Assembly: GCA_045430285.1 (NCBI GenBank)
Contig: JAILXV010000001.1
Coordinates: 236,387-300,386, forward strand
Origin: Agarilytica sp.
GTDB taxonomy: Bacteria; Pseudomonadota; Gammaproteobacteria; Pseudomonadales; Cellvibrionaceae
Direction of reading: 5' to 3'
Length of the DNA: 64,000 nucleotides
The stretch's first letter is position 1, and every line of letters begins with the position of its first letter. Shown in pieces: positions 13-55,543 of the stretch. The notes beneath the pieces were generated by a model. It did not search any database and was not told the origin of the DNA. It worked only from the letters and a program-made list of their open reading frames with translations. The translations under genes and the position numbers were made by a program.

Positions 13-1881
13 TTAGTCCCGATAGTAGAGCCATATACCTTCAATATATTTCCATGCACCGATACCATGCAAACCTTCTGAGCGAAATCGATAGTATACA
101 ATTCGTATTTTTTCTGGTGGCGTTGGGTTCCCATGTGTATGACGGTAATACGATTTCGAACTGAGTTGGTTGGGTGTTGGAAAAGGACTACCGCCAACCT
201 TAAGTTGAATATGCGATTCGCCGGAATTTGTTGTAGTAAAATGCTGCCACGGTCCGTTTGAATTTACTTTGTATTCGATGCGAGTTTTGGCGCTCTGAGA
301 TATTTCCCAGCTAGCATAAAGGGTGTAAGTATCATCTAAATTATGGGAATACAAAATGTTGTTTGTTTCTGTTTCTATTAGCTCAGGGTAGCCATCATAA
401 TTTTCATTATTATCGATAAATAAATTCGTTATTTCCGTAGAATCCGCTTCCATAAATTCCGCACTTATTTCACGAGACAACCCACTATCCGTCAGAGATA
501 TGTCAATTTCACAAGTATTATTTACGACTCGGTCACATCCCGATACCCATACTCCGTCGGAGTTTAGACCAAATTTATAAATGCCTTCTCTTCGTACGGA
601 AATAGTGCATAAACGATTTCCTTCTGAGTGACAAAATTCTGCGTCGGTTTTGGGGGATATATAGCTAAGAGATACTTCATCGTCAGTGTCTGAGGTGATA
701 CTAAAAGAGATACTGCCTTCTTCAAAAGATGGAATGTTTACGCCGGTTAGGCTATCTAAGGTTTCTGCTATATCAATAATGCCCGCACCACAGGATGCAA
801 TGGTACATGTTGAATTGTTCGGAAAAGACTTTGCACCATTCCATAATGCAGATCTAACACTACCAAAGTTCATGGTTTCCGGTGAGATTTGGTAAAGAAG
901 TGCTGCGGTGCCGGCTACTAACGGGGCCGATAGGCTTGTTCCATCAGAGTAGTTATCATATGAGTCCGTTAAACTTGTCGTTTGGCCAGTATTACTTAAC
1001 GTAATTATATCTTCGCCAGGAGCGCTAATAATAACCTGTGGACCGCTTTGACTGAATGTGGCTAGGTCGCCGGACTGATTAGTGGCAGCAACGGTGATCA
1101 CATTATCACAATTAGCCGGTGGATTAATCGGGTTTCCTGGAGTATTTCCAGCGCTAACAATAATCGTAATGTCCTGTGTGTCGGCGATATTTATTGCTCG
1201 TTGAAGATCGCTGGGACAATTAATGTTTGAGCCATTAAAACTTAAGCTTAAATTTATTATTTCTGCTCGGCGATTTTGAGTGGGGGATGGTTGGCTTAAG
1301 TTGAGGTCAGAAAGAGATACGCCTGATACCCAGTAAATTGCATCTATTAGGTCATTTACTGCAATTTGTCCGTTGCATCGTGTTCCAGATACTCGAACGG
1401 GTAGTATGGTGCTCTCTGGCGCTACTCCAATAATGCCTGTTGAGTTGGAACGTGCTCCGATCAGCCCAGAAACGTTCAGTCCATGCCAAACACTTGGCTG
1501 AAATTGCCCTTGGTCGTCATCACAGTAGTTGCCAGGATCTGTAGCATCTGAATCTCTACCGTTTCCGTCGTTGGCGTTTATGGTGTCGCTAATAAAATCG
1601 TAGCCCCCAATAAAAGCACCATTTAAGTCACTATGTAGTACATAACCACCATCTATTACAGCGACGGTTACGCCTCTGCCCGTAAATTGTTGCCAAACTC
1701 TCTCTGCGTTTGTTCCGCCAATTCCGTCATGTAGATACCACTGGTTTTTGTATTCGCTATCTTCAGGGCACCAGCTAGGCCTAGTGTCAACGTTGTAATC
1801 GGTGCATACGTCCGCTTGTTGGGCTAATGTAAAAGGAGTGAATATTATAGATAACAAAAAAAATTGAATTAAGATTCGCAT
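13..1881 (-). CDS. Secreted S8 (subtilisin-like) serine peptidase with C-terminal InlB-B-repeat-like and Fn3-like domains
   Basis: Triad motifs VAVIDGG, WHGLNVSG and GTSLSAP plus oxyanion SAGN; the GYDFISD..ANDGNGRDSDATDPG loop is typical of AprV2/StmPr-type proteases. Start moved to ATG 1881 (AAGGGA RBS, signal peptide MRILIQFFLLSIIFTPFTLA). Confidence 0.9.
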   Translation of the reverse strand: MRILIQFFLLSIIFTPFTLAQQADVCTDYNVDTRPSWCPEDSEYKNQWYLHDGIGGTNAERVWQQFTGRGVTVAVIDGGYVLHSDLNGAFIGGYDFISDTINANDGNGRDSDATDPGNYCDDDQGQFQPSVWHGLNVSGLIGARSNSTGIIGVAPESTILPVRVSGTRCNGQIAVNDLIDAIYWVSGVSLSDLNLSQPSPTQNRRAEIINLSLSFNGSNINCPSDLQRAINIADTQDITIIVSAGNTPGNPINPPANCDNVITVAATNQSGDLATFSQSGPQVIISAPGEDIITLSNTGQTTSLTDSYDNYSDGTSLSAPLVAGTAALLYQISPETMNFGSVRSALWNGAKSFPNNSTCTIASCGAGIIDIAETLDSLTGVNIPSFEEGSISFSITSDTDDEVSLSYISPKTDAEFCHSEGNRLCTISVRREGIYKFGLNSDGVWVSGCDRVVNNTCEIDISLTDSGLSREISAEFMEADSTEITNLFIDNNENYDGYPELIETETNNILYSHNLDDTYTLYASWEISQSAKTRIEYKVNSNGPWQHFTTTNSGESHIQLKVGGSPFPTPNQLSSKSYYRHTHGNPTPPEKIRIVYYRFRSEGLHGIGAWKYIEGIWLYYRD

Positions 1882-2063
1882 GGCAGTCCCTTGGTAAGGT
1901 TGGTTGTTTACGTTTTCATTTGTATTAGGTTGAAATGACGTGTTGATGGCCAAAAGTAACATAATGTTGTTGCTGATATATTTCATGTTAGTGTGGGGAA
2001 GGAATAGCTAACAAGATGATTTATGTTCGAATAGAAAGGGTTTTCTGAAGTGTGTCGGTGGCA

Positions 2064-2088
2064 TAAAAAAGCCGCGCAGAGCGCGGCT
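2064..2088 (-). terminator. Rho-independent terminator of the TonB receptor operon
   Basis: Minus strand AGCCGCGC-TCT-GCGCGGCT followed by TTTTT(T), 20 nt past the TBDR stop. Confidence 0.85.
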
Positions 2089-2108: not shown

Positions 2109-4850
2109 CTAGAAGTCGTATTTAACACTCAAGCTAACAGTTTGTCCGACAGTTTTTTCGAATGTGATGATATCACCTTGTTTAATTTCCACATTTTCGC
2201 CCAGTAGATTTTTCGCTTTGAACTTAAATGTGAAGTTGTCGGTTGGATAATACGAGTAGATCAGATCCAAGGAATTGAAAGGCTGTTCAAACTCATCTGG
2301 TTGCGAAGATATTCCTGCTGCAAATATACGTTCACCAAACACATTATATACAAGTGTGGAGGCGTGCTTCCCTTCGTTGGAGTCGTAACCAAACTGGATG
2401 TTAGCCGCATAGTCCGATGCACCACGCAAAGCGCGTTGACGGTTTGTTGCAGGTGTGAGCAGGTCATCACCGGCTTCAATTTCGGAATCTGCCAAGGTTA
2501 AATTTCCAGAAATATAGAAAGGCTCACCTGCATCGCCAAAGATGCGCTGCATGCTGTTCAACCACTCAAATTCAATACCATGAATAGATCCCGTTTCCGC
2601 GTTTTCGATAGAAGCCGTGCGTCCACCTTCACCGGCAGGTGTCTGGAAGTATTCGATTGGATTTTTAATATCTTTTAAGAAGAGAGACACTGTAAAGCTA
2701 TCGCCATTGGTAAAGAACCATTCACCACGAATGTCGAAGTTGGTTAACTCTGATGGTACAACATCAGGGTTACCATTGACGATAATATCCGTTAAAGGGT
2801 CTTGGTAGCTAGCATCCGCAACTTCCCGAAGGTCTGGCCGCACAACCGTTTCACTAGCGGCGAAACGAAGGTTGAAGTCTTCTGCGCCGAAGTTTTGTGT
2901 CGAATAGGTTAAAGAGATCGCGCCGTAGACGTCATCTTCATAAAAGACAAAATCTGGGTTCTCTGGGTCGATCAATAATGGGCTACCTGTTCGACGGTAT
3001 GGCTGCCAGGGAGCGCTGAACTGCTTGTATTCTTCGTAGCGTGCACCAGCAACAAGTCGCCAGTTATCATTCCATTTGATATCCATTTGTCCATAGTAAG
3101 CATCCGTTGTGTTTGCCGCTAGGTAGCTTCTTGATAGACCGCCTTGATACGTTAGTGTGTAGCCGTTAACAGGGTCTAAAATGTTTGCGTCAGAAAGCGC
3201 TGTCGAAGTGCTAGCCGCGTCAGCGATATTATTAAACGGTGTGCCAATCGAGAGGTCTAGCTGTTCAAAAGTTCTCGTTTTCTGATCATACTTTCCGCCG
3301 CTCAATAGCTCAATTTCAACGTCAGAAATGTTAATAGGTAATGCAAATTCAAAACCGTTACTTTCAACTTGATCTTCTAGCTCAGTATAACGAACATCCA
3401 TCATTTGAAGGCCAGGACGCAAGTTTGAACTGGTGATTACTCCTGAGTCTCGGTTTCGTGTAATGTCGGCTTGGATATTTGTTTCTGAGGGAATATCAGT
3501 GTTTGCCGTTGCATTGGAGTAGAACCAACGAAACTCTAGGTCGTCCAAAAATGTGTCACCTAATCCTAGGGCTTCTTTGGTTTCGTATCCGAGAACATGC
3601 TTTCCGTCTATTTGGTAAACCTCTAACTCTCGTTGTTCAAAACGATAATCGAATTCACGATCACCCAAACCAGAGTCGAACGATTTGTTTCCAGTATAAA
3701 TATTGGTAATCGAAACATCATCGTCTGTATTGCGAATGAAGATATTTTTGGAGGATATTTCATGCTCTTCCCCCCAGCGTAAACCGAAGTTTGCGGCAAA
3801 AGTTAGGTTGGTCGTTTCCGTTGACTTGGTTTGTTCTGACAATTCGTTCGTTGGATCAGTATATTCCCGAACGGTCTTTTCGCTTGTACGGGCTGATTCT
3901 TCGTAGTTTGCACTAAGAAGGTAACCGAATTCGAAGGAGGAACCCAAACCATGAAGGTTTCCTAGAGAAATTGAAAAATCAGTGTCGCTGATGGACTTGC
4001 TTTTAGTGCTGACATCTAAGTCTCGATACACGCCAGTTATGAGGTTGGCGTTGATGGCTTGAGCATCCGCAAGTGAAATATCAGTACCTTGCCGCTCCAG
4101 TGTCGAACGGATCGACGAAGCGGTTAAGCTTGCCTCTGGAGATGTAAGGGTGCTGCTATACGTGCGTAATGCCGTATCAATATCACCGCTAAATGCACGT
4201 GTTCCGTCGTCATCACCATAGTCGTCTCCGCCTTTATAGCTAAGAACATCGTCTGATTCAGAGTTAATCCCGGCTCCGACTTCCAGTGAAAATAGGAATT
4301 CCTCTGGTATGCCTTTCGTGCGGATATTAACGTTGCCACCACCAAAACTAGCGGCCATATTCGCACTATAGCCTTTTTGTACGGCGATAGATTCAACGAT
4401 CGACGTTGGGAATATATCTAGCGGTAAAACGTTTCGGGTTAAATCGGGGGATGGGACAGTCGCGCCGTTAAGTGTCGAGCTGGAATAACGCTCACCTAAA
4501 CCGCGAACGTAAATAAATTGGCCGTCAACTAATGTTACGCCAGGTACTCTTCGCAAAGCGGCCGCGACGGTTGAATCACCCACGCGACTAATTTGTTCCG
4601 CGCCGAGTAAATCAACGACGGTTTCAAACTCCATTCTTTCAAGCACTAAATCTTGCGCGGCACTTTGTAGCCGTCCTAACACCATTACTTCTTCAATGGG
4701 GCTAGAAATTTGGAGCTTTTGCTTTTCTTTTGTTGGTTGATTTGCAGCATCTTCAGTTTGAGCTATAGCTACTGAGCTAATTGCTAAGCTCAAAGCGCTA
4801 AGAGGAAATGCTGCAAGCAATGCTTTCTTTTTGCTTACATAGTTTTTCAT
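2109..4850 (-). CDS. TonB-dependent receptor
   Basis: Signal peptide, TonB box (EEVMVLG), plug motif LRRVPGV..YVRGLGERYS, C-terminal aromatic strand ending VKYDF. Confidence 0.93.
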   Translation of the reverse strand: MKNYVSKKKALLAAFPLSALSLAISSVAIAQTEDAANQPTKEKQKLQISSPIEEVMVLGRLQSAAQDLVLERMEFETVVDLLGAEQISRVGDSTVAAALRRVPGVTLVDGQFIYVRGLGERYSSSTLNGATVPSPDLTRNVLPLDIFPTSIVESIAVQKGYSANMAASFGGGNVNIRTKGIPEEFLFSLEVGAGINSESDDVLSYKGGDDYGDDDGTRAFSGDIDTALRTYSSTLTSPEASLTASSIRSTLERQGTDISLADAQAINANLITGVYRDLDVSTKSKSISDTDFSISLGNLHGLGSSFEFGYLLSANYEESARTSEKTVREYTDPTNELSEQTKSTETTNLTFAANFGLRWGEEHEISSKNIFIRNTDDDVSITNIYTGNKSFDSGLGDREFDYRFEQRELEVYQIDGKHVLGYETKEALGLGDTFLDDLEFRWFYSNATANTDIPSETNIQADITRNRDSGVITSSNLRPGLQMMDVRYTELEDQVESNGFEFALPINISDVEIELLSGGKYDQKTRTFEQLDLSIGTPFNNIADAASTSTALSDANILDPVNGYTLTYQGGLSRSYLAANTTDAYYGQMDIKWNDNWRLVAGARYEEYKQFSAPWQPYRRTGSPLLIDPENPDFVFYEDDVYGAISLTYSTQNFGAEDFNLRFAASETVVRPDLREVADASYQDPLTDIIVNGNPDVVPSELTNFDIRGEWFFTNGDSFTVSLFLKDIKNPIEYFQTPAGEGGRTASIENAETGSIHGIEFEWLNSMQRIFGDAGEPFYISGNLTLADSEIEAGDDLLTPATNRQRALRGASDYAANIQFGYDSNEGKHASTLVYNVFGERIFAAGISSQPDEFEQPFNSLDLIYSYYPTDNFTFKFKAKNLLGENVEIKQGDIITFEKTVGQTVSLSVKYDF

Positions 4851-4899
4851 CTGAACTCACCTATATTAAATTAATTCCTAATGGTTAGCCTGGAACAGA

Positions 4900-4921
4900 A
4901 AGGGCGCCGTAAGGCGCCCTT
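4900..4921 (-). terminator. Intercistronic hairpin (weak terminator or mRNA stabiliser)
   Basis: 9-bp stem AAGGGCGCC/GGCGCCCTT with a 4-nt loop; short, broken U tail on the minus strand. Confidence 0.6.
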
Positions 4922-4953
4922 CAGTTACGGCTCGCAAGGTTGTGTCGTCAGAT

Positions 4954-6741
4954 TTATTCGAACCACAAAGCTTGGCCGCGGTTGCCATCTACAAGGCCGT
5001 AGACCCAGCCAGCAGTCCAGTCTGAAGAAGCTTGAACAGCACCCACTGCCGATACTGATGTGTCATCGAATGAAATCGCAGCACTATTCACTACCATTTC
5101 AGCGAGGGGTACTGAGTAGTAACCGTTAAGAATGTTAAGTGAAGATGATCCGTCTGGGGTTTCTGAGCCATCGGCTGCTGCTTGGTATACCACGTTGTCT
5201 TGTGCTTCAAGAAAAGCTTGGCCAGAAATTGCGCCGTGAGTGGTACCTGCTACAAGTGTAATGTCGGCATCACGTGCTTTGTTTGAAGATATAATATTAC
5301 AGGCGAAGATAGTTGTATTGATGTTGATAAACCCGTTACCCGCATTTTCACGATCTTCAGTATCTTCTAATTGGAAACAGTAGTTCTGGAAAGAACGATC
5401 AATTGGATTTCCGTCTCCATCAACAGTTGCTAGAGCGTCGCCGTTAGCGTCTACAGTTGCATCAGCATAAGCTGTTGTAACGATAGAACGGTTCAACGTG
5501 AGCATGTGACCTTCTTCAACGTTGATACCAGCGCCTGGGTCACCGTTACCAGCAACACCAGGTGCTTTAGCACTCGTGATGCAAGTAAGGTTGTTAATGG
5601 TCGCTTGCGTAACATAGTCGTTAGCGATGTTGGCTGCTTTGTTTGAGCCGTCAGAACCATCTGACTCAACACAGTGAGCGCCAGTGCGAGTTGCGCCAGC
5701 AGGAAGACCGCCGCCTTGAATGACGAGCGCGTTAGTGATTGTGCCGTAGTAACCTTGGTCAAGGTCAATTGAGTCGTCTTGCACGTACATAGCAACGTAG
5801 TTGGTTACGTCTGCACCACCACCGAAGAATTCAATGCCGTCATCTTTGTTGCTATAAACTTCGATGTTGTTAAGCTCTGTGCCAGTACCTACTGCACCAA
5901 AAGTAATTCCGTTCAATTCGTTGTCAGTTGCAACTTCGAAACCCGCGTGTTTAACAACTACGTAGCTCAATTCACCAGAGTCATCATTAGGAACTGTTCC
6001 ACCATAGTTAAGTTCTTTACCGCCTTCTAAACCTTCAAGTTCCCCCGAACATGATTGTCCAGCTTGAAGCGTAAGAGGGGAGTCGTCTGCGAAATCCCAG
6101 CCTGGTTCATAGTTACACAAGTTTAGAAAGCCAAAACCAGCGATGGCTAGGCCGCCCCAGGTTTGGACTGCTTCTGGCGAAGTAATGTCGCCACGAATAT
6201 CCGCTTCAGAAGTGAAGGTGATCGGAGCGTCTGCACGACCACGCGCAACAAGACGTGAACCGCGGGTGATTGCAATTGCGCTGTCTGGATCAGAAAGGGC
6301 AACGGTGGCACCAGCACGAACAGTTAACGTTGCGCCGTCGCCGCCTTCAAAAATGCCGGCCGCATTTGCGTCGGCTTCTGTTTCGTAGTTTTGACCTACG
6401 TAAACAGAACCCGTAAAGATGTGGGCGCCGTCGCCGATGTCGGTAAGTGTAACGTCTGAAAGAAGAGGTTTATCAAAGTTTACGAATTGAGTGTCGTATA
6501 CGCAGTTGTCGCCTTCCTTCTGTCCTGTTTGCACTTCATCATTTGCATCTGTGTACGAAGCACATTCGAAATCTGAAGAGCCCGTATCGCCAGTAATAAC
6601 TGTAGCGCCATCGCCCACAGAGTTATCTACCGTGCTTGTTGTAGAAGATTGATTTTGCGCATCAATATTAATGTCGCCACCACCACATGCCACTAGAGCA
6701 GTAGTAAGAGCAGTTAAGCTTACAAGTGTGTTAATTTTCAT
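4954..6741 (-). CDS. Secreted beta-helix-like lipoprotein, phosphate-starvation (ElpS-like) family
   Basis: AGGAG RBS before ATG 6741; lipobox LVA-C; motifs PITFTS, WGGL, DSGELSYVVVKHAGF, ELNGITFGAVG, DDGIEFFGG, DDSIDLDQGY. Confidence 0.75.
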   Translation of the reverse strand: MKINTLVSLTALTTALVACGGGDINIDAQNQSSTTSTVDNSVGDGATVITGDTGSSDFECASYTDANDEVQTGQKEGDNCVYDTQFVNFDKPLLSDVTLTDIGDGAHIFTGSVYVGQNYETEADANAAGIFEGGDGATLTVRAGATVALSDPDSAIAITRGSRLVARGRADAPITFTSEADIRGDITSPEAVQTWGGLAIAGFGFLNLCNYEPGWDFADDSPLTLQAGQSCSGELEGLEGGKELNYGGTVPNDDSGELSYVVVKHAGFEVATDNELNGITFGAVGTGTELNNIEVYSNKDDGIEFFGGGADVTNYVAMYVQDDSIDLDQGYYGTITNALVIQGGGLPAGATRTGAHCVESDGSDGSNKAANIANDYVTQATINNLTCITSAKAPGVAGNGDPGAGINVEEGHMLTLNRSIVTTAYADATVDANGDALATVDGDGNPIDRSFQNYCFQLEDTEDRENAGNGFININTTIFACNIISSNKARDADITLVAGTTHGAISGQAFLEAQDNVVYQAAADGSETPDGSSSLNILNGYYSVPLAEMVVNSAAISFDDTSVSAVGAVQASSDWTAGWVYGLVDGNRGQALWFE

Positions 6742-6925
6742 GAGAAAAGACTCTCCTAAATGGTATTTCAAAAGTTTTTAAAATCTGGGATGGTCATTTC
6801 ATTGATGACCATCGGGTATGAAGCAGCGCGTTATATTTTCGAAGAGGCAACGATCATGACGTCCTTATCGATAGCGTTTGTTTGGCGCGATATGCTTTAT
6901 GTGCGGCATAGTGTCGGCGAGTTTT

Positions 6926-6965
6926 GTGACGTTAAAACGACAAAAATATGAAGGTTCTATTACAG
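6926..6965 (-). promoter_or_regulatory. Pho box (PhoB site), four direct repeats at 11-bp period
   Basis: Minus strand CTGTAAT-AGAA-CCTTCAT-ATTT-TTGTCGT-TTTA-ACGTCAC, compared with the consensus CTGTCAT-(A/T)4. Confidence 0.75.
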
Positions 6966-7166
6966 CCTTATGGCGCGCAAAATAAAGCCTTTAATGGTCG
7001 CGTTGTTAGCGTAAGCTTTCACTGACTAAACAGATTTCTAAAATTTTGGAGGCAAGAGGAGAGGAATGTTGTGGCGCGGGGCATCTGTAGGCTAGCTGTA
7101 TGTTTAAGCTAACGGTGGAAATATCTCGGTATTTTTTGGGGAGGGGAGGTGGTTTTGGCGGCGGTG

Positions 7167-7736
7167 TTAGCACTGCCAAAACTGAATGCGGCTCTCTATT
7201 TCCGGACGCACGCGTTCATTTGGTTTGCAATGGGTTGAGCCAATGTAAATAAAGCCCGCAATTTTTTCTGGTTCAGAAACTTCTAATGAAGCAAGCACGT
7301 TATTGTCATACGCATACCATTCCGTTAGCCACTGAGCTGCGAAACCAAGGCTCTTGGCCGCATGAAGTATATTTTGGCAAACGGCACCCGCGCATAACCT
7401 TTGTTCCCATTCGGGGACTTTATGTTCTTGCGGTGAACTGATAACGGCGATCACTATTGGGGCTCGGGTAAAGCGTGCTTTCTCAAACGCGAGGAGTTTA
7501 TCGCTCGCGTCAGGGTTGGCTTTCGCGAAAGCTTCGGCGAGCACTTCACCAAAATCTTGCCGAGCGTTATCTTCAAACACAATAAACCGCCATGGGCCTA
7601 TTTTTCCGTGATCGGGTACACGATGACCGGCAGCTAGAATGCTGCGTAATTCATCAGAAGACGGGCCTGGGGCACACATGTCTTTTGCGACGGTTGAACG
7701 GCGAGAGAGAAGGGCGTTTAGTGTATCGTTGCTCAT
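7167..7736 (-). CDS. Nitroreductase, YdjA family
   Basis: LLSRRS, RVPDHGKIGPWRF, GFAAQWLTEWYAYD, IAGFIYIG motifs. Confidence 0.9.
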   Translation of the reverse strand: MSNDTLNALLSRRSTVAKDMCAPGPSSDELRSILAAGHRVPDHGKIGPWRFIVFEDNARQDFGEVLAEAFAKANPDASDKLLAFEKARFTRAPIVIAVISSPQEHKVPEWEQRLCAGAVCQNILHAAKSLGFAAQWLTEWYAYDNNVLASLEVSEPEKIAGFIYIGSTHCKPNERVRPEIESRIQFWQC

Positions 7737-19384: not shown

Positions 19385-19886
19385 AGCATTTAGTGCAAAT
19401 CTATACTGAAGGGTACTGGATTAAAACGGGTAACTTTCAGGTCTCGTCTGAACTACTACATCTGAGCACTTCAATTCATGTTATACCTAAACTTTTGTGT
19501 GACGATGGTGTTACGCCTTCCTCTTTTGTTTTGATCTCGTGTTAATTTTTCACTTTATCTTCACCGCGGTCACCTTATAATGCGCCCGTATATTTGCGGA
19601 AGGTCAGCGTTACATTGTTATAAAGCATCATGATTTAGAATGCTAGAAAACAGTTGGCGTCAAAAACATCAAAATCTTCCTTTGACAATATTTATATCCA
19701 TTTCGTAACCATAATCGGCATCACTTATCATCGGAATACGATTACACTGCGCTCCGTGAATTATGCGCCATTGTAGTCGAATGTGTATGTGCGCTTTGGT
19801 GTGATGGATCATAAGCACGATATAACAACAATCAGAAAGCAACAAACTATACAAAAAATGGAATATGGATTTTGGAGTGTAATAAA

Positions 19887-22685
19887 ATGAAAAATACGTT
19901 GTCGTCACGTATCCCCAGTCTCGTACTATTGAGCGCTTTGTGCTCTGGTGAGCTGTTTGCCGAAAATAGCGCCTCAGAGAAGAGCCTAGCGAATAAACCA
20001 GAAAATAAACAAGATAAAATTACCGAAGAAGTGTATGTGACAGGGTCTCGCAACCCCTTGTCTAATGCTTCATCTTCATTTCCCTTGTTAACTATTGATT
20101 CGCAGGATTTGAGTCTTTCATCCAAGCCTGTCTTGTCGGACGTACTAAACCGCTTACCTTTAGCGGGTACCCCCTTAACTTCACAAACAACGACCAATTT
20201 TGGGTTCTTTGCGCCTGGCATCTCCTCCGTTGATCTACGTAATTTATCTCCAACAAGAACCTTGGTATTGGTGAATGGCCGCCGCTATGTCGGTGGCGAT
20301 AGTGAACGCCCGAATGTTGTTGATCTGAATAGTATTCCATCCGCAATGGTCGAACGTATTGAGGTCGTGACTGGCGGTGTCTCTGCGGTATATGGTTCAG
20401 AAGCCGTTGCAGGGGTAATCAATATCATCACCAAAAAAGATTTTAATGGGACGCATATAGACGCGCAGTGGGGGCAGTCATCCGAGGGCGATGGCGACGA
20501 GAAAAGCGTATCGCTGACGAATGGTTTTGGCTTTAATGAAAACGCCGGTCATGTGACATTTAACTTGGGGTATACCGAATTGGGCGAAGTGTATTCCAGG
20601 GATCGTGCATTTTCTGAGAATGATGAATTTCTTGGCGATTTCCAAGATTACAGCGTGTACACACCGCAAGGTACGATTACGGCGGACAATGCGAATTTTT
20701 TTACAGCGGGTGATGATGGTTTATGGACCGCGCCTTTCGATGTTGCAAGCGATGGTTTTAATCGCGCTGACTATAGATTGTTGAGCGTACCCCTTACGCG
20801 TGAAAGTTTTGCATTGAATGCAGATTATACATTTAGTGATAAGCTCAATAGTTTTGTAGAGCTAGGTTACACATCCACAGATTCTTTTTCGCAAACTGAA
20901 CCCACTGGCGCCGGTGCAGTATTCGGGCATTTCATCTTGTCTGACCACCCGAGTATTCCTGCCGAAGCGTTAACAACGTTAACGGGTTTTTATGGCGAGT
21001 TACCAGGGATTGTCAGTTTTACTCGGCGCCTTCCTGAGCTTGGTTCAATACGCGCCGAGCAGGAACGCACGACACAGCGTATCGCTTTTGGTTTTGATGG
21101 CGATATTAAGGGCTGGCTCTGGGATGCCTATTACCAATGGGGGCAGAATGAACGCAAGCAAACAACTCAAGGCAATTACAATATTCTATCTTTTCAAAAT
21201 GCGTTAGATATCGAAGCGGATCCCGAAAATAATGGCGGGTTTCGTTGTGTTGATGTTCAGGCGAGGGCAGAAGGGTGTCTGCCTATCGATGTATTCAGTG
21301 CTGATGGTATCAGCGATGCGGCGATAAACTATGTTGCTGTTCCGTCATTCGATTCCTCCACTATTGAACAAGAAGTTTTTTCGATGACTTTGCGCGGTCA
21401 ACTCGAGAATATATTACCAGCGGGTAATATCGGAGTGGCGACGGGGTTTGAATGGCGGCAAGAATCACTTAACACAAAAGCTGATGAATTTGCGTTGGCG
21501 GGTGTTAGTTCTTCAAATGCGATTGCTGCAGAAATAGATGATGATTATGAGGTGAGTGAAGTATACGCCGAGTTAAAATTGCCTATTCTAGCGAATACAG
21601 CAGGCGTTAAATATTTTGGTGCTGACTTAGCGTACCGGTATGCGGATTATACGACCCTTGGTACGCATGGTAGTTGGCAGTTTGGTTTAAACCTCGCTTT
21701 AGATAAAGCCTTTTCTTTTAGATCGATGGTGTCTGAATCCGTACGTGCGCCCAATATCGTAGAATTATATGACCCAGGCGTAATAACCGGCATAGAATTT
21801 TTTGACCCTTGTGAAGTTGGCGGTGTTGGTAGCACCGAAGCAAATTGTAGTAGCCTTGGAATACCTACGGACTATGTGTCGGGCCCATTCGGTGGCTTTT
21901 CTGCGGGCTTAGTTTCTGGGAATGAAGACTTAGAGGAAGAGACTGCCGATACAATGAGCGTTGGGGTTTCATTTACCCCCATTGAGACCTTATCTGTGTC
22001 GTTTGATTACTTTGATATTTCGATCGATAACGCCATTGAGCAAGTAAATCCACAGATTAAACTTAATCAATGCTATGCCGCAGATGACTTCCCTAATAAC
22101 GAATCATGTGTCGGTATTGCTCGAGATGGCGCCGAGTCTAATTATTTGATCTCACGTTTGGATATTGATCTACAAAACATTGGGTCGCTAGAAACGAAAG
22201 GCTGGGACTTGGCGGTTAACTACAATACAGATGCGTTTGGTGGTAGCTTGGCGATGAATGTATTGGTAACACGTACTATTGATTGGGAGTCAACCATTTA
22301 TGATGAGCCCTTCACTAAGCTAGAAGAGCCTGGTTATCAAAAGTGGAAAGCAAATACGCAGCTAGCCTATCGTAAAGATGCAGTGACCTTCACCTGGGCA
22401 ACTCGTTATCTTGGAAGTGGCGTTGTAGATAATACCTTTGATACAAGTATTTGGCCTGCGAACGAAGATTTACCTTCGGTGTGGTATCACGACTATAACG
22501 TTCGGTTTAACCTAAAAGACCAAGCCAGTTATACCTTTATCGTCGGCCTTAATAACGCAACAGATAAAAAACCACCTTATATTCCTTCGCCTTCGTTTAA
22601 CAATATTGCCGGTACGAATACTGCGGCTGGTGTTTATGATGTTATCGGTCGGTTTTTCTATGTGGGTGCCGAGGTAAGCTTTTAG
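19887..22685 (+). CDS. TonB-dependent receptor
   Basis: EEVYVTGSR TonB box, DLRNL..RTLVLVNGRR plug, VYGSEAVAGVINII, terminal GRFFYVGAEVSF; GGAG RBS before ATG 19887. Confidence 0.93.
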   Translation: MKNTLSSRIPSLVLLSALCSGELFAENSASEKSLANKPENKQDKITEEVYVTGSRNPLSNASSSFPLLTIDSQDLSLSSKPVLSDVLNRLPLAGTPLTSQTTTNFGFFAPGISSVDLRNLSPTRTLVLVNGRRYVGGDSERPNVVDLNSIPSAMVERIEVVTGGVSAVYGSEAVAGVINIITKKDFNGTHIDAQWGQSSEGDGDEKSVSLTNGFGFNENAGHVTFNLGYTELGEVYSRDRAFSENDEFLGDFQDYSVYTPQGTITADNANFFTAGDDGLWTAPFDVASDGFNRADYRLLSVPLTRESFALNADYTFSDKLNSFVELGYTSTDSFSQTEPTGAGAVFGHFILSDHPSIPAEALTTLTGFYGELPGIVSFTRRLPELGSIRAEQERTTQRIAFGFDGDIKGWLWDAYYQWGQNERKQTTQGNYNILSFQNALDIEADPENNGGFRCVDVQARAEGCLPIDVFSADGISDAAINYVAVPSFDSSTIEQEVFSMTLRGQLENILPAGNIGVATGFEWRQESLNTKADEFALAGVSSSNAIAAEIDDDYEVSEVYAELKLPILANTAGVKYFGADLAYRYADYTTLGTHGSWQFGLNLALDKAFSFRSMVSESVRAPNIVELYDPGVITGIEFFDPCEVGGVGSTEANCSSLGIPTDYVSGPFGGFSAGLVSGNEDLEEETADTMSVGVSFTPIETLSVSFDYFDISIDNAIEQVNPQIKLNQCYAADDFPNNESCVGIARDGAESNYLISRLDIDLQNIGSLETKGWDLAVNYNTDAFGGSLAMNVLVTRTIDWESTIYDEPFTKLEEPGYQKWKANTQLAYRKDAVTFTWATRYLGSGVVDNTFDTSIWPANEDLPSVWYHDYNVRFNLKDQASYTFIVGLNNATDKKPPYIPSPSFNNIAGTNTAAGVYDVIGRFFYVGAEVSF

Positions 22686-54566: not shown

Positions 54567-55415
54567 TTATATCGTTTCCGCCATCGCGCCTTTTTCAATA
54601 CCTTCAAACGCTTTTACCACAAAGTGTGTTTTTTCTTCAGCAACAACCTGTTTCGTTAATTCAGACAGTATATGTTGCGTGATAAGCTCGATGGTGGAAT
54701 CTGTCGTAATAATGTCACATTGCGCTTTAGGCAACTCTAGATAAAATTCACCTTGTTGTGCGGTATAGCGAAAGCCAATATTTTCTTTATATTCGGCTGT
54801 AACGCAGTCTGATTGCGTACCAATATAAATGTCTTGCCAGCGCTCCGCCCAATACCGCATGTCTTCCAGGCTTAGTTCCCCGTTACGCCAAATAAGTATG
54901 CGTGAGCGATGACCGTGAGCGATACGTTGACAGTTGCCATCATGTTTCTTAAGCCCATGACTATAGTGGTAATAGGGGCCTTCAATGTGCTCTGGAGTGA
55001 AGGTAATAACAAGTTTTTCAACCGAAGCGGGAAATTCTTTTAGTAATTGATCAACACAATATTGAGCAACGGAATCTGTTGTTACGACATCGGCATCAAT
55101 CAATGTGAGCGCCTGTCGAGGACATGTCGTTTTGATGACGTGTTCTTGGTAGGACCAGGTGAGATCTTGCGTGCCTTCTTTATCTTCTAGATTGGCGCAG
55201 GGAGAATTAATTGGCACAACCAGACGATGGTCCACTTCTTCGTCTAGCCAGCGCTTAATTCTCTTTTTGACGTGACCAAAATCGACCACCATGCCTTGTG
55301 AATCCAATTCACCGTGTAGCTCAACGTTTACTTGCCAGGTTTCCCCGACTAAGCCGCGTGACGGATGTAAAAAACTGAAATCAATGGTGGTGAGTTTGTC
55401 GACAAACAATCGCAT
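54567..55415 (-). CDS. Tandem-domain 6-carboxytetrahydropterin synthase-like (QueD-like) protein
   Basis: DFGHVK...IDHRL, HYSHGLKKHDGNCQRIAHGH. Confidence 0.82.
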   Translation of the reverse strand: MRLFVDKLTTIDFSFLHPSRGLVGETWQVNVELHGELDSQGMVVDFGHVKKRIKRWLDEEVDHRLVVPINSPCANLEDKEGTQDLTWSYQEHVIKTTCPRQALTLIDADVVTTDSVAQYCVDQLLKEFPASVEKLVITFTPEHIEGPYYHYSHGLKKHDGNCQRIAHGHRSRILIWRNGELSLEDMRYWAERWQDIYIGTQSDCVTAEYKENIGFRYTAQQGEFYLELPKAQCDIITTDSTIELITQHILSELTKQVVAEEKTHFVVKAFEGIEKGAMAETI

Positions 55416-55543
55416 AAAATTAGGCCTATTACTGAACGGCAATAGTACGCGAAAAAATGTAAGCTTGTTAGCGCCAGTTGTTTCAATCTGCGGGAATACT
55501 TTGTAAGCACTGCGGTTTAATAGAATTTGTGAGGAGAGTACCC

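Follow-up and report, generated by a model that had tools for sequence, protein, structure and literature searches.

We describe a predicted phosphate-starvation operon within a 64-kb window (the whole stretch of DNA that was analysed) of Agarilytica sp. contig JAILXV010000001.1. The operon consists of two genes, encoding a surface lipoprotein of the ElpS family and a TonB-dependent receptor, and on the basis of its promoter sequence it is predicted to be activated by PhoB under phosphate starvation. The locus is a new gammaproteobacterial (Cellvibrionales-like) instance of an already known and widespread module of lipoprotein and receptor. Regulation, family assignment and gene pairing are jointly well supported and we regard the three together as very likely to be correct. 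The fuller reading, in which a PhoB-activated operon supplies a lipoprotein capture subunit and a TonB receptor that imports a phosphorus ligand, is in our judgement probable. All features of the module lie on the minus strand and are as follows.

6926..6965, minus strand: predicted Pho-box array of four half-sites, CTGTAAT (6965-6959), CCTTCAT (6954-6948), TTGTCGT (6943-6937) and ACGTCAC (6932-6926)
6908..6915, minus strand: predicted −10 element, GACACT at 6915-6910 (10 nt past the array) or the overlapping CACTAT at 6913-6908 (12 nt past the array)
6742..6903, minus strand: predicted 5′ untranslated region of about 160 nt, with a palindrome and a ribosome binding site (RBS) inside
4954..6741, minus strand: ElpS-family surface lipoprotein gene (ATG at 6741, stop at 4954, 595 aa)
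4894..4920, minus strand: intergenic hairpin, AGGGCGCC-TTAC-GGCGCCCT at 4920-4901 followed by TTCTGTT
2109..4850, minus strand: TonB-dependent receptor gene (913 aa, Plug and barrel domains)
2070..2088, minus strand: strong predicted intrinsic terminator at the operon end, AGCCGCGC-TCT-GCGCGGCT followed by TTTTTT

The half-sites of the array repeat with a period of exactly 11 bp and are separated by the 4-bp spacers AGAA, ATTT and TTTA, in which 11 of the 12 bases are A or T. The array has the same orientation as the lipoprotein gene and ends 184 nt from its ATG. The four-unit array scores 27.7 bits with a PhoB half-site matrix (CTGTCAT plus four A/T-rich bases), compared with 6.9 bits for the next independent four-unit site in the window, while the maxima of 300 first-order Markov random 64-kb sequences averaged 9.1 bits (standard deviation 2.8) and did not exceed 19.5. 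An earlier note, made from the sequence alone, had described four repeats of 11-bp period at these positions, in this orientation and about 185 nt upstream of the lipoprotein. That description is accurate in every detail, and the weight-matrix scoring which it proposed places the array well above both the window background and the random maximum. Two-repeat boxes of 18 bp with ≤ 3 mismatches are not unusual in the window (3 observed against 4.5 expected). The top two-unit Pho-like site of the window, CTGTCGTAATAATGTCAC at 54701-54718 (plus strand, 16.7 bits), lies inside a PTPS-family open reading frame (ORF) on the opposite strand (54567-55442, minus) and is most likely a chance occurrence. 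We predict that the four half-sites at 6965-6926 form a binding site for two PhoB dimers, equivalent to two Pho boxes. Two adjacent Pho boxes are also present at E. coli pstS.

A promoter scan found no sigma-70 −35/−10 pair at the array, and the Pho box stands in for the −35 element. In E. coli pstS and phoA the Pho box likewise replaces the −35 element and the −10 element starts 10 nt after the last repeat, the distance at which GACACT is found here. The transcription start would lie near 6903. A search for a Fur box at the promoter gave a best match of 11/19, which equals background, and iron regulation was ruled out by the absence of such a box.

To compare promoters and gene neighbourhoods we assembled 84 loci, 80 of them with lipoprotein relatives from species-representative genomes and four obtained through exact-protein look-ups. 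Array counts cover the 83 loci with sufficient upstream sequence, with gene starts set by the lipobox and ≤ 400 nt upstream included. Arrays of at least 20 bits were identified on the coding strand at 24 of these 83 loci versus 3 of 83 on the opposite strand, and arrays of at least 25 bits at 17 loci versus one. The opposite-strand arrays belong to Rheinheimera loci in which the divergent gene is PhoB by NCBIfam TIGR02154 (375 bits, cutoff 296), and all three are explained as serving that divergent phoB. Coding-strand four-unit arrays of 25-26 bits precede the genes of an Agarilytica metagenome-assembled genome (MAG), Teredinibacter purpureus and a Joint Genome Institute contig (L084), whose lipoproteins are 61-69 % identical to the window protein. 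A hexamer of the form nAnnnT, for example TAATTT, TATTCT, TAGTGT or TACTGT, starts exactly 10 nt past the fourth half-site in approximately 20 of the 24 related arrays. The pooled half-sites have T at position 4 in 89/96, A at position 6 in 90/96 and G at position 3 in 79/96, in agreement with the E. coli Pho box. Within the fetched loci this matrix further detects promoters of phoB, of a PstS-family gene, of Porin_4 porins, of gspD and of a DUF3450 gene heading an ExbB-ExbD cluster, which serves as an internal check on its ability to find genuine Pho promoters. PhoB control, as the earlier note had claimed, is predicted with high confidence from an array that is a statistical outlier, is kept in relatives, is enriched on the coding strand and displays class-II promoter geometry.

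Within the leader, the RBS AGGAG at 6757-6753 lies 5′ of the lipoprotein ATG at 6741. A TTG at 6771, taken as the start in the ORF listing, is probably wrong; the ATG is preferred because it has the RBS and because the N-termini of homologues agree with it. The leader folds with −34.4 kcal/mol (z = −2.1) and contains a perfect 9-bp inverted repeat, GATGGTCAT-N7-ATGACCATC at 6813-6789 (minus strand), which could be an RNA hairpin or the operator of a dimeric regulator. Long leaders are also found in Agarilytica (210 nt) and Teredinibacter (269 nt), although the leader sequence is not conserved. As the 9-bp palindrome is absent from the leaders of both, it was not counted as part of the conserved system. 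An Rfam search of 6600-7200 returned nothing credible, the sole match being AsdA with an E-value of 0.76.

The lipoprotein carries the precomputed annotation PF28492 (Beta_helix_4). A large protein database contains more than 1,100 relatives, and every match listed in three homologue searches is a precomputed member of PF28492. Searches of NCBIfam and of Pfam gave no match even at E = 10 in Pfam, the copy of which was searched without the PF28492 model. The closest relatives are from Cellvibrionales, including Agarilytica (69 % identity), Teredinibacter (62 %) and Spongiibacter (59 %), followed by Alteromonadales, Woeseiaceae and SAR86 and then by Alphaproteobacteria, Bacteroidota and one Myxococcota MAG. 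A partial Caulobacteraceae homologue (L053) leads on to many PF28492 proteins of 480-510 aa in Caulobacter, Phenylobacterium, Brevundimonas, Sphingomonas and Xanthomonadales. The locus of one Caulobacter protein (P0159, Caulobacter sp. NIBR1757, 489 aa) comprises the lipoprotein, an 881-aa receptor and gspC, D, E, F, G, H, I, J and K. The window lipoprotein is 36 % identical to P0159 over a 233-aa core (E = 3e-36), and the adjacent receptors, aligned end to end, show 30 % identity (E = 2e-81); the identity of P0159 as ElpS rests on its gene order, which is that of PMC2996285, and on the published homology of ElpS and BT4056. A further protein labelled C. vibrioides (KSB90040.1) belongs to the same family. 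Membership of the ElpS family, which the earlier note had proposed, is upheld by PF28492, by the similarity to a protein in the published elpS gene layout and by that of the adjacent receptors, and on these sequence comparisons we regard the assignment of the lipoprotein to ElpS/PF28492 as secure.

Certain annotations within the family are misleading. The NCBI label 'serine/threonine protein kinase' borne by P0002, P0011, P0022, P0032, P0049, P0073 and P0087 is unsupported and looks like a propagated error, since the window protein is 49-69 % identical to most of them and has no Pfam kinase domain. P0281 has the appearance of a fusion of PF28492 with a PstS-like protein; the internal signal peptide and lipobox in its sequence identify it as a gene-calling run-through from an upstream pstS-like gene. 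Near double-length members of the family occur in Alteromonas (L031, L032 and L059, ~1356 aa), Oceanicaulis (L050, 1047 aa) and SAR86 (L074, 989 aa), and in the Oceanicaulis ORF the whole β-helix unit is tandemly duplicated within a single lipoprotein.

The second gene of the operon starts 103 nt after the lipoprotein stop. Its product matches PF07715 (E = 3.6e-11) and PF00593 (E = 8.3e-26) and has an N-terminal signal peptide, a TonB-box-like IEEVMVLG and a barrel of the 22-strand type. The best NCBIfam match is TIGR01782 (TonB-Xanth-Caul) at 203 bits, below its cutoff of 310. A domain scan detected no N-terminal signalling extension of the extracytoplasmic function (ECF) type, and a sequence search for solved structures found no relative of the receptor. 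At 79 of the 84 loci a homologous receptor is encoded on the same strand, and its gene nearly always follows that of the lipoprotein directly. The five loci without a receptor are cut contigs, and the gene order is reversed in one Myxococcota locus.

A hairpin directly following the lipoprotein stop is a further common property of these loci. Across 82 loci the median energy of the best hairpin is −22.6 kcal/mol versus −10.7 kcal/mol in shuffled sequences, and 88 % of loci have a hairpin of ≤ −12 kcal/mol versus 40 % of shuffles. The hairpins are GC-rich, are often trailed by a run of T and are seen across Gamma- and Alphaproteobacteria. Their stems differ in sequence among lineages, which indicates conservation of the structure and not of the sequence. 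Probably the hairpin acts through leaky termination or by stabilising the RNA, and in this way raises lipoprotein levels over those of the receptor. Such a role agrees with the approximately 2:1 ratio of elpS to receptor reads in Caulobacter, and may explain the differing behaviour of the two genes in the 2010 ElpS paper (PMC2996285).

The N-terminus of the lipoprotein, MKINTLVSLTALTTALVAC, contains a signal peptide and the lipobox LVAC with Cys19 as the lipidation site. A lipobox is present in 80 of 83 homologues. The sequence CGGGDINI, which begins with the lipidated cysteine (residues 19-26, window ~6664-6687), is almost invariant in gammaproteobacterial members and may be a surface-sorting signal or a receptor-docking strand; some Bacteroidota members have an acidic, export-signal-like CSDD in its place. 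It is followed by a low-complexity disordered tether of about 35 aa. An AlphaFold2 model built with 22 homologues (mean predicted local distance difference test (pLDDT) 82, predicted template modelling score 0.85) has residues 1-55 disordered with pLDDT below 50 and a body rich in β-strands, which in the model is a right-handed parallel β-helix of the pectin-lyase-like type. The top listed Foldseek matches in the PDB are all β-helices (GH28, GH110, alginate epimerases and phage tailspikes), although weak ones: no E-value is better than 5e-3 and the TM-scores are about 0.2. Sequence and profile searches of the PDB with the lipoprotein gave nothing meaningful and no solved structure.

Eight cysteines are invariant among the 22 close homologues, which suggests an extracytoplasmic protein with four disulfides. 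When 20 family members drawn from Gamma- and Alphaproteobacteria, Bacteroidota, SAR86 and Myxococcota are aligned, the invariant positions are few and include W195, G196, G197, E236, E275, N277, D300, D301, E304, D322, D323, D326 and E359. From E275 to E359 the invariant residues are spaced by 22-37 residues, approximately one rung of the helix, a spacing expected to stack them into an acidic ladder along a single face of the β-helix. Such a ladder would coordinate metal ions and, by way of these, an anionic ligand, or alternatively could be catalytic.

All neighbouring ORFs of the 84 loci were clustered and their representatives annotated, with phoB, PstS-like genes and PstB counted within 8 kb. 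Recurrent neighbours include phoB (16 loci, at least 50 % identity), PstS-family binding proteins (9 loci) and PstB (7 loci); GspD (11 loci), GspE (9 loci) and GspC (7 loci), with type II secretion genes overall in 7-13 of 84; DUF3450, ExbB and ExbD (9-10 loci); and porins (7 loci). Neither a phosphatase, nuclease or phytase nor a glycoside hydrolase, sugar transporter or sugar regulator recurs among the neighbours of related loci. In Alteromonas (L031, L032, L036 and L059) and Idiomarina (L024) a DUF3450-ExbB-ExbD cluster lies 3′ of the receptor, and the DUF3450 gene has a Pho-box array of its own at L024 and L059, pointing to a dedicated system for energising TonB that is controlled by phosphate starvation. 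The upstream side of the Alteromonas loci contains phoB, a PstS-like gene and a 2-oxoglutarate-Fe(II) oxygenase. Strong Pho arrays also lie directly 5′ of gspD (L027, near 13358) and gspC (L081, near 14253) beside the module, in keeping with reports that PhoB controls type II secretion in Caulobacter.

Homologous pairs have been studied in a number of organisms. In Caulobacter, cc0170 (elpS) encodes a lipoprotein of approximately 50 kDa and is located immediately 5′ of the TonB receptor gene cc0171 and gspC-N (PMC2996285). Caulobacter produces ElpS only when starved of phosphate. The protein is palmitoylated and surface-exposed; a type II secretion-dependent protease cuts it at residue 38 and releases it, and this release is accompanied by higher activity of alkaline phosphatase in the medium (PMC2996285). 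Activity of the elpS promoter requires PhoB (PMC5172544). As listed in the PMC11208175 supplement, CCNA_00169 and CCNA_00170 belong to the PhoB regulon and to the direct regulon defined by chromatin immunoprecipitation in Lubin et al. 2016; their read counts increase some 100- to 1000-fold, starting in the hundreds or low thousands and reaching ~300,000 for elpS and ~130,000 for the receptor (PMC11208175 supplement). In Flavobacterium johnsoniae the transporter Fjoh_0545 and the lipoprotein Fjoh_0546 are encoded in the phoBR operon. Phosphate depletion raises their expression by log2 8-10, whereas limitation of nitrogen or of iron represses it, and both are dominant in the secreted fraction (PMC8115612). 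Price and Arkin described ElpS as homologous to Bacteroides BT4056, a lipoprotein of the pectin-lyase superfamily, found BT4055/BT4056-type pairs adjacent in 621 genera, 171 of them Proteobacteria, and proposed the lipoprotein to be a lid of the transporter (bioRxiv 10.1101/2023.03.17.533168). A September 2026 preprint presents the SusCD-like PusCD1 and PusCD2 as the first complexes of a receptor and a lipoprotein for organic phosphorus to be characterised functionally, and they demonstrate that complexes of this type are able to import it (bioRxiv 10.64898/2026.09.03.749221). As far as the literature could be searched, no structure or substrate has been reported for an ElpS-type pair.

By analogy with these systems, we infer that the operon is induced by phosphate starvation in the window organism. 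In low phosphate, phosphorylated PhoB would bind the four half-sites and recruit RNA polymerase at the −35-less promoter. The leader of about 160 nt would be followed by lipoprotein made in excess, with a fraction of the transcripts passing the hairpin into the receptor gene. The lipoprotein would be lipidated at Cys19, reach the surface in the manner of ElpS and hang there on its tether of about 35 residues, with the acidic ladder facing the medium or the mouth of the receptor and capturing a phosphorus ligand, probably via divalent metal ions. Positioned over the receptor it would act as a capture subunit like SusD, BtuG or TbpB, and the receptor would import the ligand at the expense of TonB energy. 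Within this scheme the capture role, the metal bridging and the ligand are all inferred, and the nature of the ligand in particular is speculation. The presence of phosphate-handling neighbours without phosphatases leads us to lean towards inorganic or small phosphorus species over a polymer hydrolysed at the surface. The earlier note had proposed a surface enzyme or binding protein and an importer for a phosphorus source. A surface protein paired with an importer fits the published work (PMC2996285, PMC8115612, bioRxiv 10.1101/2023.03.17.533168), but the structural likeness to phytases, nucleases or phosphatases for which the note suggested looking did not appear, Foldseek returning only generic β-helix matches.

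A number of observations weigh against the reading of a PhoB-activated capture and import system. The half-sites are degenerate, matching CTGTCAT at 6, 5, 5 and 4 of 7 positions, the matrix used to score them was an ad hoc one modelled on the E. coli consensus and not a curated one, and both candidate −10 hexamers, GACACT and CACTAT, are weak. The 184 nt between array and ATG exceed the distance in most homologues (mode 57-90 nt), so that other control elements may lie in the leader. Microbulbifer homologues have weak arrays or none. The window contains no other Pho genes and no type II secretion genes, and as the recurrent neighbours of related loci are all absent from it, the Pho array is the sole link to phosphorus here. 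Sequencing runs containing the window sequence comprise three aquatic metagenome DNA runs and no RNA run. In the literature, cc0171 was called constitutive in the original ElpS paper (PMC2996285), contrary to later RNA sequencing, and few high-confidence AlphaFold-Multimer contacts were obtained for BT4055-BT4056 (bioRxiv 10.1101/2023.03.17.533168). Lastly, the acidic constellation of the lipoprotein could equally mark a catalytic site.

Part of this evidence bears on whether the operon responds to phosphate at all. Winged-helix response regulators generally bind direct repeats about one helical turn apart, and the array could be the site of an OmpR-family regulator other than PhoB, or a chance A/T-rich periodicity, with the operon responding to a non-phosphate signal. 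Each two-unit box alone is within chance expectation, and both the degenerate half-sites and the lack of Pho genes in the window would suit such an origin. However, the four-unit score is far above random, arrays with a TGTCA core recur before homologues across families and classes at a fixed spacing to the −10 element, the pooled half-sites match the E. coli Pho box and the matrix finds the promoter of phoB itself. The Caulobacter homologues are in addition given as direct PhoB targets in the PMC11208175 supplement. We consider it very unlikely that the array is anything but a PhoB site. Still less credence is given to carbohydrate scavenging by a locus typical of Cellvibrionales, with a lipoprotein acting as a polysaccharide lyase or hydrolase, a receptor for oligosaccharides and any connection to phosphorus incidental. 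The pectin-lyase-type fold, the origin of the DNA from a polysaccharide-degrading group and the best NCBIfam match of the receptor to the TonB-Xanth-Caul subfamily, many members of which import carbohydrates, all point in this direction. On the other hand, searches of Pfam, NCBIfam and the PDB matched no carbohydrate-active enzyme family and gave no profile of the GH28 or PL1 type, what recurs near related loci is phoB, pstS, pstB, porins, ExbBD and genes of type II secretion, with no sugar genes among them, and the Pho boxes are conserved. The Flavobacterium homologues, moreover, answer phosphate depletion and are repressed under nitrogen or iron limitation (PMC8115612).

A more serious alternative accepts phosphate control and concerns the lipoprotein itself, which may be a metal-dependent hydrolase or lyase built on a β-helix that cuts a phosphorus polymer at the surface, the receptor then importing the product. 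Its substrates could be polyphosphate, teichoic-acid-like phosphoglycans, nucleic acid or phospholipid head groups, and shedding of the enzyme is possible. The ten polar residues from E236 to E359 are invariant in Proteobacteria, Bacteroidota and Myxococcota, the rung spacing of E275-E359 is that of active sites in β-helix enzymes, and the best, though weak, structural matches are to GH28, GH110, alginate epimerases and tailspike depolymerases. ElpS release goes with an increase of alkaline phosphatase in supernatants (PMC2996285), and the Flavobacterium homologues are abundant in the secreted fraction (PMC8115612). Against this, neither sequence nor profile searches linked the lipoprotein significantly to any enzyme family or solved structure, the Foldseek matches do not improve on E = 5e-3 and a TM-score of about 0.2, and the phosphatase activity linked to ElpS is indirect. 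Strict one-to-one pairing with a receptor, as seen here, is what capture lipoproteins typically show. Acidic residues by themselves would repel phosphate, a difficulty for an enzyme of this kind. Taken as a complete account the enzyme is possible but doubtful; on the narrower question of what the lipoprotein does, we hold the capture-subunit role and an enzymatic one to be about evenly balanced. A specific form of the capture reading is that the module carries out TonB-powered high-affinity uptake of orthophosphate, pyrophosphate or polyphosphate as metal complexes held on the acidic ladder. This proposal is rather unlikely to be right as it stands, though it would explain why the ties are to phoBR, pstS, pstB, porins and ExbBD-TonB and not to phosphatases, and why the pair ranks among the strongest PhoB-target inductions in two phyla.

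The operon is surrounded by housekeeping genes. Upstream on the same strand is a nitroreductase gene (7745-7167), with a divergent gltX further out, and the 425 nt between the nitroreductase stop and the lipoprotein start contain the repeat array. Just past the operon terminator, an S8 subtilase of 657 aa with a long C-terminal extension is encoded at 13-1986 (minus strand). It was considered as the protease releasing the ElpS-type protein and rejected: it has no Pho array, is separated from the operon by the terminator and occurs beside the module in none of the 84 related loci. Further nearby genes for secreted or outer-membrane functions include one for a 1059-aa esterase of the polyhydroxybutyrate-depolymerase type with fn3 domains (10949-14128, plus strand) and one for a 392-aa protein with a weak, sub-threshold match to aerolysin (14375-15553, minus strand). 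A second TonB-dependent receptor (19872-22685, plus strand) has no Pho array upstream, and BLAST detected no similarity between it and the receptor of the module at E < 1e-5.

ElpS-type pairs are among the strongest phosphate-starvation responses of Caulobacter and Flavobacterium and are kept in hundreds of genera. The locus described here appears, on its sequence, to extend a textbook double Pho box and the module itself to marine polysaccharide-degrading Gammaproteobacteria as a stand-alone two-gene unit. By itself the locus is confirmatory; new here are the intergenic hairpin, the acidic ladder conserved across phyla and the pattern of phosphate genes in the neighbourhood. The comparison also provides experimental handles in the form of a fixed promoter geometry, an attenuator hairpin that predicts the ratio of lipoprotein to receptor, and acidic residues that can be mutated. 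If energised uptake of phosphate across the outer membrane were true, it would supply a missing step before PstSCAB in phosphate-poor waters, and models of bacterial phosphorus acquisition in ocean and soil would change.

The promoter resembles those of E. coli PhoB targets (pstS, phoA, phoB and ugpB) in its CTGTCAT-like 7-mers, its 4-bp A/T-rich spacers and its orientation towards the gene, but differs from them in that the half-sites are more degenerate, the −10 element is weak and the leader extends over about 160 nt. The matrix is of gammaproteobacterial type and gives only 9 bits at the Caulobacter sp. promoter. With Caulobacter ElpS/CC0171 (CCNA_00169/CCNA_00170) the module shares the lipobox, a Gly-rich disordered tether, the PF28492 core and a receptor gene immediately downstream, and a hairpin between both genes is also present at a Caulobacter sp. 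locus (L081). PhoB control is direct in Caulobacter and predicted from the Pho-box array in the window. The window lipoprotein exceeds the Caulobacter protein by about 105 aa and has an additional Cys-bonded module near its N-terminus (~60-100), insertions at ~205-235 and 343-352 and a longer C-terminal part. Whereas gspC-N lie directly downstream in Caulobacter, the window module has no type II secretion genes beside it and stands alone among housekeeping genes.

BT4055/BT4056 and Fjoh_0545/Fjoh_0546 ('hypothetical lipoprotein FII') likewise combine a non-SusC TonB transporter with a lipoprotein of pectin-lyase fold, and the invariant motifs NE(L/I)NG(I/L), DDG(I/V)E(F/M)FGG and DD(S/A)(I/L)D are common to the window protein and the fetched Bacteroidota loci. 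The Bacteroidota proteins are shorter (~425-475 aa), the matrix detects no Pho boxes of proteobacterial type upstream of them, and the F. johnsoniae genes, unlike those of the window, sit inside the phoBR operon. In its proposed logic the module resembles SusCD/PusCD, BtuB-BtuG, HmuR-HmuY and TbpA-TbpB, where a surface lipoprotein passes a scarce ligand on to the TonB-powered barrel encoded beside it, and a regulator of nutrient starvation governs both. It is related to these in neither sequence nor fold: SusD and PusD are α-helical and tetratricopeptide-repeat-like, BtuG is a β-propeller and TbpB a bilobed β-barrel, whereas the window lipoprotein is predicted to be a β-helix.

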